DNA of 64,000 bases from Escherichia coli. GTDB lineage: Bacteria; Pseudomonadota; Gammaproteobacteria; Enterobacterales; Enterobacteriaceae. Within the stretch, counting starts at the first letter, position 1. Each line of letters starts with the position of its first letter. The position numbers were made by a program, and so were the translations under genes. The notes below the pieces were generated by a model. It was not told where the DNA came from and did no database searches. It worked only from the letters and a program-made list of their open reading frames with translations. Where the stretch lies: assembly GCF_044324785.1 (NCBI RefSeq), contig NZ_CP172127.1; one strand, given 5' to 3'. This document shows, piece by piece, positions 2,500 to 59,753 of the stretch.

Positions 2500-3198
2500 T
2501 TAAACGCTTTCTAACTGTTCTGCTGTGATGCTACCCAGATGTTGCGTTTTTCCTGCCAGATAGCGTGTTTTAAAGCGGGTAAAATGCTCGCCTAACCCTG
2601 CTGCCGCCCCGGTATCGCCGGCCATATCTAACAGTGCGATGGCTACCTCGGCAGTACAATATTGGCCTTCAGCCTGGGCTTCACGCAGGCGATAGGCAGA
2701 AAGCCGGGAAAGATCGACGGAAATGACGGGAAGATTATCCAGATACGGACTTTTACGAAACATTTTGCGAGCTTCCGGCCAGGTACCATCGAGCATGATA
2801 AACAGCGGTGGCTTACCGGCAGGTGGTGTGAAGATCACTTCCCGTTGCTCATCAGCATACGAGGCGGGAAAGACCACCATTGGCTGATAATCCGGGTTTT
2901 GTACCAGATCCAGCAAATCTTGCGAGGGTTCGGTACGCGACCATTGAAACGCAACGGTATCAGGCAAAATATCAGCAATCAGACGCCCGGTATTACTGGG
3001 CTTCATTGGCTCGGTGTCGAACATCAGCAAACAGAAGCGACTTTTTGCTTGTGCTGGGGTAATTGTCGAACAGAGACATAATTTCTCTGGCAAAAGACAG
3101 CGTTGGCAGCGAAGAACGCGATTACCGCGGGCAAGAAAAGGACGTGTTGCGCGCGCAATACGCTCGGCGCGTAACTGAAGAACAGCGTTTTCGGTCAT
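2500..3198 (-). CDS. yfiP: DTW-domain tRNA-uridine aminocarboxypropyltransferase (YfiP/TapT), 232 aa
   Basis: ORF 2500..3249; internal Met (MTENAVLQ...) gives the 232-aa length recalled for YfiP; CxxC...CxC and DGTW motifs. Confidence 0.85.
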   Translation of the reverse strand: MTENAVLQLRAERIARATRPFLARGNRVLRCQRCLLPEKLCLCSTITPAQAKSRFCLLMFDTEPMKPSNTGRLIADILPDTVAFQWSRTEPSQDLLDLVQNPDYQPMVVFPASYADEQREVIFTPPAGKPPLFIMLDGTWPEARKMFRKSPYLDNLPVISVDLSRLSAYRLREAQAEGQYCTAEVAIALLDMAGDTGAAAGLGEHFTRFKTRYLAGKTQHLGSITAEQLESV

Positions 3199-3266
3199 AA
3201 GAGAGCGTCGAAAAAACGCCATTGTCGCAGAGGAGAAAACGGGGCACAAGATGCGCCCCGGTAAGA

Positions 3267-3686
3267 TTAAAGCGATTCGTTCAGCCAGCTATCGAACGGC
3301 GCTTTCGGTACTGCGCCATTAAGCATGTCGACAACCTGACCGTTTTTGAAAATCATGATCGTCGGTATACTACGAATTCCAAAGCGACTGCTCAATTCAC
3401 GTTCAGCTTCGGTATTCACTTTCACAAAGCGCACTTTACCGCTACGCTCTTGCGCGACATCTTCAAAAATTGGTGCGAAATTACGGCAGGGGCCGCACCA
3501 CGGTGCCCAGAAGTCGATCACCACTGGTAGATCATCTTTCAGCAATTTGTCGAGCGTTTCACCGGTCGCATTAATCACCTCTCCGTCAAACAAGTCGTGA
3601 CCGCAGCGTCCGCATTTTGCCGCATCTTCGATCCGATCGTCGGGAATGCGATTGATGGCCTGACAATGGGTACAAACGGTATTCAT
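3267..3686 (-). CDS. trxC: Thioredoxin 2
   Basis: 139 aa; WCGPC active site plus N-terminal paired CxxC zinc-binding motifs typical of Trx2. Confidence 0.95.
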
Positions 3687-3892
3687 AACTAACCTCGGGA
3701 TGAGTAAGGAGACTTATCGGCAACGACGCCGGTATGTTTCTAATATGTTACATATTATCGGGGACATTGTTCCAGACAACAATCTGTTTTATTCAATAGG
3801 TATGATAGTCGCAGGCTTTGGTACGAAATCATGGCGAACCGCGCGGACTTCGGGTAATCTGCGCGCTTCGCGCAGCGCTGGTGGAGAAAAGC

Positions 3893-4930
3893 ATGAACGA
3901 TGAAATGAAAGGTAAAAGCGGCAAGGTCAAAGTGATGTATGTCCGCAGTGATGATGATTCTGATAAACGTACCCACAACCCGCGTACCGGGAAAGGGGGC
4001 GGGCGTCCAGGAAAATCTCGTGCTGACGGTGGCCGTCGCCCCGCCCGCGATGACAAACAGAGTCAGCCCCGTGACCGCAAGTGGGAAGATTCGCCGTGGC
4101 GCACGGTTTCCCGCGCGCCGGGTGATGAGACGCCGGAAAAGGCCGATCACGGTGGCATCAGTGGTAAAAGTTTTATTGATCCAGAAGTTTTGCGTCGTCA
4201 GCGTGCGGAAGAAACCCGCGTCTACGGCGAAAATGCATGTCAGGCACTGTTCCAGAGCCGTCCGGAAGCGATTGTTCGCGCCTGGTTTATCCAGAGCGTA
4301 ACGCCACGTTTTAAAGAAGCCTTGCGCTGGATGGCGGCAAACCGCAAAGCGTACCATGTGGTGGATGAAGCGGAATTGACAAAAGCGTCAGGCACGGAAC
4401 ATCACGGCGGCGTTTGCTTCCTGATCAAAAAGCGTAATGGCACAACTGTGCAGCAGTGGGTAAGCCAGGCAGGTGCGCAGGATTGCGTTCTGGCACTGGA
4501 AAACGAATCTAACCCGCATAACCTGGGGAGCATGATGCGCAGCTGCGCGCACTTCGGCGTGAAAGGCGTTGTGGTGCAGGATGCGGCACTGCTGGAGTCG
4601 GGTGCGGCTATCCGTACCGCAGAAGGCGGCGCAGAGCACGTTCAGCCGATTACTGGCGACAACATTGTTAACGTGCTGGATGATTTCCGTCAGGCGGGTT
4701 ACACCGTAGTGACAACTTCCAGCGAGCAGGGGAAACCGCTGTTCAAAACCAGTCTGCCAGCGAAAATGGTACTGGTGCTGGGTCAGGAATATGAAGGGTT
4801 ACCGGATGCCGCACGCGATCCAAACGATCTGCGCGTGAAGATTGACGGTACTGGCAACGTTGCCGGGCTAAATATCTCTGTCGCAACTGGCGTTTTGCTT
4901 GGTGAATGGTGGCGTCAGAATAAAGCCTGA
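3893..4930 (+). CDS. yfiF: SpoU/TrmH-family RNA 2'-O-methyltransferase with K/R-rich N-terminal extension (YfiF), 345 aa
   Basis: ORF 3818..4930; ATG at 3893 preceded by GGAG; product matches recalled YfiF. Confidence 0.85.
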
Positions 4931-38024: not shown

Positions 38025-38128
38025 GTTCATGCCGGAAGCGGCATGAACGCCTTATCCGGCCTACAAAACTTTGCAAATTCAATATATTGCAATATCCGTG
38101 TAGGCCTGATAAGCGTAGTGCATCAGGC
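38025..38128. repeat. REP/BIME cluster downstream of glyA
   Basis: Hairpin GTTCATGCCG...CGGCATGAAC, then REP copies GCCTTATCCGGCCTAC and inverted GTAGGCCTGATAAGCG...CATCAGGC. Confidence 0.8.
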
Positions 38129-38149
38129 AATCTTAGGTTTGTGATCATC

Positions 38150-38171
38150 AAGGCTTCCTTCGGGAAGCCTT
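38150..38171. terminator. Hairpin AAGGCTTCC ttcg GGAAGCCTT between glyA and yphH (putative terminator)
   Basis: Perfect 9-bp stem with tetraloop; flanks are not strongly T-rich. Confidence 0.45.
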
Positions 38172-38188
38172 TCTACGTTATTGCGCCA

Positions 38189-47556: not shown

Positions 47557-48429
47557 ATGACCATCTATACCTTGTCCCACGGGTCGCTAAAGCTGGGCGT
47601 TTCTGACCAGGGCGGCGTAATCGAAGGCTTCTGGCGCGATACGACGCCGCTCTTACGTCCTGGTAAAAAAAGCGGTGTGGCAACCGATGCCTCTTGTTTT
47701 CCGCTGGTGCCATTTGCAAACCGGGTGAGCGGCAACCGTTTTGTCTGGCAGGGGCGTGAGTATCAACTGCAACCGAATGTTGAGTGGGATGCGCACTATC
47801 TGCACGGCGACGGCTGGCTGGGGCAGTGGCAATGTGTCTCGCGCAGCGAAGATAGCTTGTGTCTGGTGTATGAACATCGCAGCGGTGTTTATCACTATCG
47901 GGTAAGTCAGGCGTTTCATTTAACGGCGGATACGCTGACGGTGACGCTCTCTGTCACCAATCAAGGGGCAGAGACGCTGCCATTTGGTACCGGCTGGCAT
48001 CCTTATTTTCCGTTGTCACCACAAACGCGGATTCAGGCGCAGGCGAGCGGTTACTGGCTGGAGCGGGAGCAGTGGCTGGCGGGTGAGTTTTGCGAGCAGC
48101 TACCGCAGGAGCTGGATTTCAACCAGCTCGCGCCGTTGCCGCACCAGTGGGTAAACAATGGCTTTGCCGGATGGAATGGTCAGGCCCGCATCGAGCAGCC
48201 GCAGGAGGGTTATGCCATCATCATGGAAACGACGCCACCTGCACCATGTTATTTCATCTTTGTTTCCGACCCGGCGTTTGATAAAGGATATGCGTTTGAT
48301 TTCTTCTGTCTGGAACCGATGAGCCATGCGCCGGATGACCATCATCGCCCGGAAGGGGGTGATCTCATTGCGCTTGCACCAGGGGAATCAACAACTTCAG
48401 AGATGTCGTTGCGGGTTGCGTTACTGTAA
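47557..48429 (+). CDS. yphB: Aldose 1-epimerase-family protein YphB
   Basis: 290 aa; ORF-track match, RBS AAGGAG. Confidence 0.85.
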   Translation: MTIYTLSHGSLKLGVSDQGGVIEGFWRDTTPLLRPGKKSGVATDASCFPLVPFANRVSGNRFVWQGREYQLQPNVEWDAHYLHGDGWLGQWQCVSRSEDSLCLVYEHRSGVYHYRVSQAFHLTADTLTVTLSVTNQGAETLPFGTGWHPYFPLSPQTRIQAQASGYWLEREQWLAGEFCEQLPQELDFNQLAPLPHQWVNNGFAGWNGQARIEQPQEGYAIIMETTPPAPCYFIFVSDPAFDKGYAFDFFCLEPMSHAPDDHHRPEGGDLIALAPGESTTSEMSLRVALL

Positions 48430-48437
48430 TTTATAAA

Positions 48438-48477
48438 ATGCCGGATAAGGCGTTCACGCCGCATCCGGCATGTTTTT
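48438..48477. repeat. REP-type palindrome between yphB and yphA, also serving as terminator
   Basis: ATGCCGGAT aaggcgttcacgccgc ATCCGGCAT followed by GTTTTT. Confidence 0.75.
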
Positions 48478-48898
48478 AACGCCGATCGAGAGAAATTGCC
48501 CCCGGCCCGGTAATTGCCAACAGCAGGAATGCGCCAGCGATACTGACATTCTTCCAGAAATTAATCATATTTGGCCCAACCGCATCGCCGGTCATATCCC
48601 AGTAATGGTGACCAATTACCGCTGTACCCAGCGTGTAGAAAATAAACAGCACCGCCAGCGGACGGGTGAAAAAGCCAAGCACGATTAATATCGCGGCGGG
48701 CACTTCCATAACTACCGCAATAATCGCTGCCAGCATCGGCATTGGCGCGCCCAGCGAGGCCATATATTGGACCGTACCGTCAAAACCCATCATTTTGGGA
48801 AAACCAAAAATAATGAAAATTAAGACCACGGCGATACGGGCAATTAATAACAAAACGGGGCGTGCAGCACCAAAATCAAAATAACGTAGTGAGTTCAT
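48476..48898 (-). CDS. yphA: DoxX-family inner membrane protein YphA, 140 aa
   Basis: ORF 48476..48970; internal ATG (cat 48896-48898) gives [14 protein letters not shown]... Confidence 0.85.
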
Positions 48899-48994
48899 AA
48901 CCAATCCCTTTGCAAGATAATGTGATTTAAACGTAATACACACTCTGGTACCTCGCCACGCCCCAGGCATTGAGATATTCGCTAATTATCCTGG

Positions 48995-50206
<1,212 letters not shown>

Positions 50207-59669: not shown

Positions 59670-59753
59670 GCCTGATGCGACGCTTAATGCGTCTTATCAG
59701 GCCTACAATGTACAGAACCGTAGGTCGGATAAGGTGTTCACACCGCATCCGAC
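59670..59753. repeat. REP/BIME pair between trmJ and iscR
   Basis: GCCTGATGCGACGCTTAATGCGTCTTATCAGGCCTAC and GTAGGTCGGATAAGGTGTTCACACCGCATCCGAC in inverted arrangement. Confidence 0.8.

Follow-up and report, generated by a model that had tools for sequence, protein, structure and literature searches.

The yphB–yphA gap and its hairpin

We analysed a window of 64 000 nt from Escherichia coli (assembly GCF_044324785.1, contig NZ_CP172127.1), the whole stretch being numbered from its first letter. Within it the genes yphB and yphA, whose names were taken from the RefSeq annotation of loci 96–99% identical, converge on an intergenic gap of 46 nt (Table 1). The gap contains a palindrome, ATGCCGGAT-AA-GGCG-TTCA-CGCC-GC-ATCCGGCAT, that starts 8 nt past the yphB stop codon and ends 4 nt short of the yphA stop codon. 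By sequence inspection, an outer stem of 9 bp (ATGCCGGAT at 48438–48446 paired with ATCCGGCAT at 48463–48471) is separated by an AA/GC bubble (48447–48/48461–62) from an inner GGCG/CGCC stem of 4 bp (48449–52/48457–60), which closes on a TTCA loop (48453–56). A single G (48472) follows the hairpin and leads into a run of five T, the last two of which lie inside the yphA stop codon. With the flanks ATAAAAT upstream and GTTTTTAA downstream, the arms of this allele extend to 24 nt and are 79% complementary.

Folded as RNA, the hairpin reaches −22.9 kcal/mol on the plus strand and −23.8 kcal/mol on the minus strand, with z-scores of −5.3 and −6.0, respectively, and an equally good fold was found in none of 200 shuffles. 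The expected count of its 30-nt core in shuffles of the window is 0.00. The initial annotation had pictured a single REP palindrome with a trailing T-run, lying exactly between the two stop codons and probably acting as a bidirectional terminator; the palindrome, its place between the convergent stops and the presence of the T-run all agree with our inspection of the sequence.

Two further features of the region were recorded. The yphA frame remains open for 24 codons beyond the annotated start (window 48899–48970, minus strand), giving an open reading frame of 164 aa rather than 140 aa. Compared with 5426 complete E. coli genomes, the 1.1 kb at window 47900–49000 has a best match of 99.0%, most genomes lying at ~97%, so the lineage of the window is thinly represented among complete E. 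coli genomes.

Table 1. Coordinates of the features at the yphB–yphA junction, in window positions
Feature	Position	Strand	Basis or remark
yphB (aldose 1-epimerase family)	47557..48429	+	Stop TAA at 48427–48429
A/T-rich spacer TTTATAAA	48430..48437	−	Reads UUUAUAAA directly after the hairpin in the yphA transcript
Region matching the 43-nt overlap of convergent 3′ ends in K-12 (2673769–2673811)	48434..48476		Transferred by hand
Y-type REP (palindromic unit), counterpart of K-12 REP185	48438..48471		Sequence, fold, repeat search, K-12 match
TCAC, 4-bp target duplicated by IS1397 in other strains	48454..48457		Junctions in strain S1-SRL-01-C
T5 run after the hairpin in the yphB transcript, allele-specific	48473..48477	+	Overlaps the yphA stop; sequence comparison
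yphA (DoxX family inner-membrane protein, 140 aa from annotated start)	48476..48898	−	Stop TAA at 48478–48476

Repeat identity, IS1397 and history of the locus

The hairpin is a Y-type REP, an ordinary representative of the most frequent intergenic repeat of E. coli. Its identity is borne out by repetition across the genome, by IS1397 targeting and by its counterpart in K-12, which is listed as REP185 (Harris et al. 2026, Table 16, with EcoCyc-style numbering) and has a 34-nt hairpin identical to that of the window. An 86-nt query containing the whole REP matched each E. coli genome by megablast at 29 places in the median (at most 40 pieces counted per record), while the median was 1 for a query with only half of the REP. 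The core shares 28 of 30 bases with a GTAG-footed Y REP at 38031–38060, part of a BIME downstream of glyA (window 38031–38130: y REP, linker, z1-like REP). Another BIME, in which a z2 iREP faces a y-type REP whose foot is altered by one base, lies at window 59670–59733. As in the Y-type family at large (Bachellier; Ton-Hoang et al. 2012, PMC3333891), the palindrome is imperfect and GC-rich with an AA/GC mismatch in the stem, and it lies outside coding sequence at gene 3′ ends, occurs in many copies and is a target of IS1397.

The window copy differs from the family in two respects: it has no partner iREP, and in place of the 5′ GTAG foot stands AAAT. Single REPs are a minority in K-12 (84 of 584), and the conserved 5′ GTAG is required for binding and cleavage by TnpA-REP (PMC3333891). 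The window REP should accordingly be invisible to TnpA-REP on sequence grounds, and because its foot is replaced the copy is probably a degenerate, immobile member of the family. The missing foot also explains why a Y/Z REP consensus pattern with a CTAC foot gave no hit in a search allowing up to three mismatches. The K-12 RefSeq record annotates no repeat features, the glyA BIME included. Two other roles were considered and rejected. First, an sRNA gene at the site was ruled out: the sole Rfam similarity is to naRNA4, an RNA derived from REP arrays, and it scores 36.3 bits against a threshold of 59.5. Second, the roles of REPs in IHF or gyrase binding are tied to the L linker of BIME-1 or to Y+Z2 pairs, both absent here, and a role of this kind was set aside.

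IS1397 inserts specifically into REPs, as shown experimentally (PMC1525189), and the yphB/yphA REP has been hit in its loop by at least two independent insertions, in two orientations and in two forms of the locus. In strain S1-SRL-01-C the element is flanked by a duplication of TCAC; in strain 16843 a second insertion has the opposite orientation and a TTAC duplication. The insertions occupy positions 3059–4492 of our locus L003 (NZ_CP145630) and 2672–4103 of L009 (NZ_CP113503), each with a 4-bp duplication. With a 141-nt query, the TCAC-type junction was found in at least 59 complete E. coli genomes, and the REP is thus split by ~1.4 kb in a sizeable lineage of the species. An 81-nt junction query returned 695 genomes and was discarded as an overcount, insertions in other Y REPs nearly reaching 80% coverage.

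The description of the REP as single holds for the window; 437 of the 5426 complete E. coli genomes (8%), the type strain among them, carry a multi-REP array in a longer gap instead. The longer gap also occurs in E. albertii, in E. whittamii and in a divergent species representative labelled 'E. coli'; it measures 159 nt in E. coli 19AR1321 (L002, 1031–1189), and further examples were located at L010 9388–9549, L060 1859–2020 (E. whittamii) and L022. Of the 85 stretches that a 17-mer scan picked up in species genomes, 5 proved to be the real locus and all others were chance matches. In the long form, a y iREP with an internal deletion is followed by a linker, a z2 iREP, another linker and a GTAG-footed y REP, the foot reading GTAG or GTAA. 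Compared with this BIME-2-like array of E. albertii, E. whittamii and phylogroup-B2-type E. coli such as ATCC 11775, the window has the same flanks and right-hand y REP, and the array has 112 extra bp (y iREP, linker, z2 iREP, GTAG-footed y REP). Aligning the long form with the short form, which is carried by at least 4783 genomes, leaves a single clean 112-nt gap with both edges in a GCCGGAT direct repeat. The most parsimonious reading is that an ancestral BIME was reduced by deletion to the single REP of the window and K-12, and the GTAG foot would have been lost through this 112-bp deletion between the GCCGGAT repeats. A third arrangement of the gap (AAAAT, y REP, linker, z2 unit) is found in Escherichia sp. 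E1V33 (L070, 1–118), where the sequence ends. The neighbourhood varies as well: the hcaR-hcaEFCBD cluster lies beside yphA in the window and in K-12 and is missing in the long-form strains, where yphA is directly followed by hcaT (L002 1190–2194; L009 4127–5171).

Tail alleles and transcript 3′ ends

Across divergent E. coli the 34-nt hairpin is nearly invariant and its flanks vary. The T-run allele is found in ~5% of complete E. coli genomes and in E. whittamii, its GTTT-TTAA tail being identical in at most 257 records. The tail CTTTCCTAA, together with a TAG stop of yphA, is that of K-12, strain W, E. albertii and most other genomes, and K-12 and most strains have CTTTCC at the position of the T-run. 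On the opposite side most strains read ATAAAAT and K-12 reads ATTAAAT. Compared with REP185 of K-12 MG1655, the window thus has the same locus, flanking genes and hairpin, while the tail on the yphA side differs by three substitutions and a 1-nt deletion (GTTT-TTAA in the window, CTTTCCTAA in K-12) and the other tail by one substitution (ATAAAAT in the window, ATTAAAT in K-12). The changes on the yphA side create the T5 run and convert the yphA stop from TAG in K-12 to TAA in the window. E. whittamii (L060, 2006–2020) has the minority GTTTTTAA tail of the window (48469–48480), whereas E. albertii and most E. coli have CTTTCCTAA; the shared tail reflects either an old polymorphism or exchange between lineages.

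For transcript ends we turned to a K-12 list of bidirectional terminators between convergent genes, which we take to stem from the SEnd-seq study of Ju et al. 2019. The K-12 counterpart is entry 209 of its 306 terminators, containing REP185 with the flanks GUUAGGAA and AAUAAAUU, a 43-nt overlap at 2673769–2673811 and a ΔG of −26.1 kcal/mol, classed as convergent transcription in a gap region and seen in both log and stationary phase (bioRxiv 10.64898/2026.03.23.713779, supplementary Table 16). When K-12 coordinates were moved by hand through the base-by-base correspondence of the two sequences, the yphA-sense end fell at window 48434 and the yphB-sense end at ~48475/76, which nearly coincides with the interval given in the initial annotation. 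The 3′ ends of both K-12 transcripts therefore overlap across the hairpin, which supports the bidirectional terminator proposed in the initial annotation, and they do so with an allele that has no T-run. The lack of transcript 3′ ends that would have told against the initial annotation is not what the K-12 catalogue shows. We infer that the same 3′ ends would form in the strain of the window. The element is thus one already named and already catalogued as a bidirectional terminator in K-12: the finding is accurate, and it is already known.

Other data sets are less uniform. Term-seq had been suggested as a check in the initial annotation, and an independent Term-seq study of K-12 in three conditions called no 3′ end within 2673500–2674099 (Adams et al. 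2021, PMC7815308). A positive control for this search, the 3′ end at 2684070 downstream of glyA, was found. That end falls on a separate classic terminator hairpin following the glyA BIME (window 38150–38175, GGCTTCC-TTCG-GGAAGCC-TTTCT) and not on the REPs. The SMRT-Cappable-seq supplements have no entry for yphA/yphB, and a full-text literature search for yphA and yphB together returned only unrelated PHA papers.

In the same Term-seq study a Rho termination region was reported in K-12 at 2674648(+), antisense to yphB and, along the yphA strand, ~840 nt beyond the REP, with reads of 48/11 without bicyclomycin (BCM) and 233/228 with it; inhibiting Rho raises the reads in the 800 nt directly past the REP from 48 to 233 (PMC7815308). 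On the minus strand of the window the position is roughly 47597, where it is antisense to the 5′ part of yphB. The region implies that antisense RNA spans all of yphB in K-12, and this plus-strand RNA downstream of the REP has its source either in readthrough or in an internal antisense promoter. The data suggest that in K-12 the REP is often passed by polymerase on the yphA strand, Rho then completing termination, and that the site may be leaky as a terminator.

Formation of 3′ ends and alternative readings

We consider it probable that the lone Y REP, a BIME remnant and the counterpart of REP185, is a common and probably leaky bidirectional 3′-end element of yphB and yphA. Because the REP is nearly palindromic, both transcripts would carry it as a hairpin, so that a stable fold of about −23 kcal/mol could form at the 3′ end of the yphB mRNA on the plus strand and of the yphA mRNA on the minus strand. 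Such a hairpin would pause or terminate RNA polymerase arriving from either side and would block 3′-to-5′ exonucleases, leaving stable ends a few bases past the stem. This matches what is described for REPs in general. About 60% of REPs lie between convergent genes, a REP is present in 207 of 704 convergent gaps, 78 REPs lie inside the 306 bidirectional terminators, and the model array REP325 combines two activities, partly Rho-dependent termination and stabilisation of the upstream mRNA (bioRxiv 10.64898/2026.03.23.713779). The site also resembles the overlapping bidirectional terminators of the SEnd-seq class (Wang et al. 2022 preprint) in its convergent pair and in the single hairpin within the 3′-end overlap. 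The K-12 site further shares their few flanking A/U (3 of 8 on either side), whereas the window allele has more flanking A/T; the transcript data in this comparison are from K-12 only.

Is the hairpin only an exonuclease barrier? On this reading, polymerase would read through the REP, Rho would terminate diffusely in the opposing gene and PNPase or RNase II would trim the RNA back to the hairpin. The model of Dar and Sorek, in which Rho-dependent transcripts end at stable hairpins without a U-tract and REPs are enriched, provides a precedent: 3′ ends at REPs make up 24% of Rho-dependent and 13% of intrinsic ends, and REP hairpins protect the ends (PMC6061677). The BCM-raised reads past the REP fit the view from that study that the main effect of REP hairpins is to set stable, trimmed 3′ ends, and both the 5-fold rise just after the REP, with the Rho region ~840 nt further on, and the U-poor K-12 tails point the same way. 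Against this, the catalogue authors state that the bidirectional-terminator class is independent of Rho, attributing it to hairpin-induced pausing and polymerase collisions on the basis of SEnd-seq and single-molecule work; the opposite strand, antisense to yphA or hcaD, has no reported Rho region; and the plus-strand RNA in yphB could come from an internal promoter. We regard a pure barrier as tentatively possible, at clearly less than even chances.

The closeness of the hairpin to both stop codons raises the possibility that it acts on translation, terminating ribosomes stalling at the hairpin and lowering the yield of YphB and YphA. According to Liang et al. 2015, as cited in PMC12306157, REPs lower translation of the upstream gene only if its stop codon is <16 nt away. 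Both genes qualify, the spacing being 8 nt at yphB and 4 nt at yphA. Such an effect could be added to 3′-end formation instead of being an alternative to it, and we hold it to be rather unlikely.

Equally doubtful is the notion that the REP is a neutral remnant of a selfish repeat, with the 3′ ends an unselected by-product of any stable hairpin. The loss of the GTAG foot recognised by the REP transposase would suit a neutral remnant, as would tail sequences that are not conserved and a plastic locus with long, short and IS1397-disrupted forms. However, the hairpin itself has stayed nearly invariant across divergent E. coli while its flanks vary, the y REP is kept in E. albertii and E. whittamii, and convergent gene pairs with REPs show higher expression genome-wide (bioRxiv 10.64898/2026.03.23.713779).

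The T-run of the initial annotation would suit a canonical Rho-independent terminator working in both directions through hairpin and U-tract alone, a mechanism that we consider unlikely. In most strains the site is not such a terminator because it has no U-tract. The window allele would come nearer to one in both directions: its tails read G-UUUUU-AA, with the T5 run, on the plus strand (yphB) and UUU(U)AUAAAUU on the minus strand (yphA), U making up five of the first eight bases on each, the K-12 tails being poorer, and its flanks give the extended, partly complementary arms described above. The d'Aubenton-Carafa and TransTermHP tail scores, re-implemented here and read as heuristics only, are borderline; the best d is ~+15 yphA-sense, a weakly positive score, and −0.7 yphB-sense in the window, and ≤0 for both in K-12. 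A consensus terminator scan gave no hit here, its rule being unable to deal with a bulged stem. Most REPs have no poly-U, few being classed as coincidental intrinsic terminators (bioRxiv 10.64898/2026.03.23.713779). With stop codons 4 and 8 nt from the stem, a terminating ribosome would probably cover the 5′ arm and oppose the hairpin, which would make hairpin-dependent termination less effective as long as translation and transcription are coupled. K-12 and most genomes have no T-run, yet the K-12 ends are present; since the K-12 allele still shows 3′ ends, the T-run cannot be what makes the site work. It is possible that the run is a modest improvement of 3′-end formation rather than its cause. 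That in the GTTTTTAA/TAA allele a U-less REP hairpin has been naturally converted into a genuine Rho-independent terminator for the yphB side seems to us improbable.

Lastly, the hairpin might only pause polymerase, release needing head-on and trailing RNA polymerase collisions between the convergent units, as proposed for such sites from SEnd-seq and single-molecule work on ynaJ-uspE, but this is hard to credit here, as that model was tested at one other locus only and expects efficiency to rise with expression, which predicts poor performance at the weakly expressed yphA/yphB pair (in laboratory media the expression of hca/yphA and of the yph operon is weak, with a base mean of 166 for yphA in one RNA-seq table), and Term-seq called no peaks at the site.

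We therefore retain the bidirectional, probably leaky 3′-end element as the preferred reading. As one among several hundred REP hairpins of E. coli, the yphB/yphA site matters little alone. If the conversion of the T-run allele were true, readthrough into antisense yphA/hcaD would be measurably different between strains with one allele and the other, and the alleles would offer a population-level case of terminators switching class by a few tail mutations. The locus as a whole provides a natural series, comprising a multi-REP array, its single-REP deletion product, two tail alleles and versions disrupted by IS1397, which could separate the effects of the hairpin, the U-tract and REP number on termination and mRNA stability.
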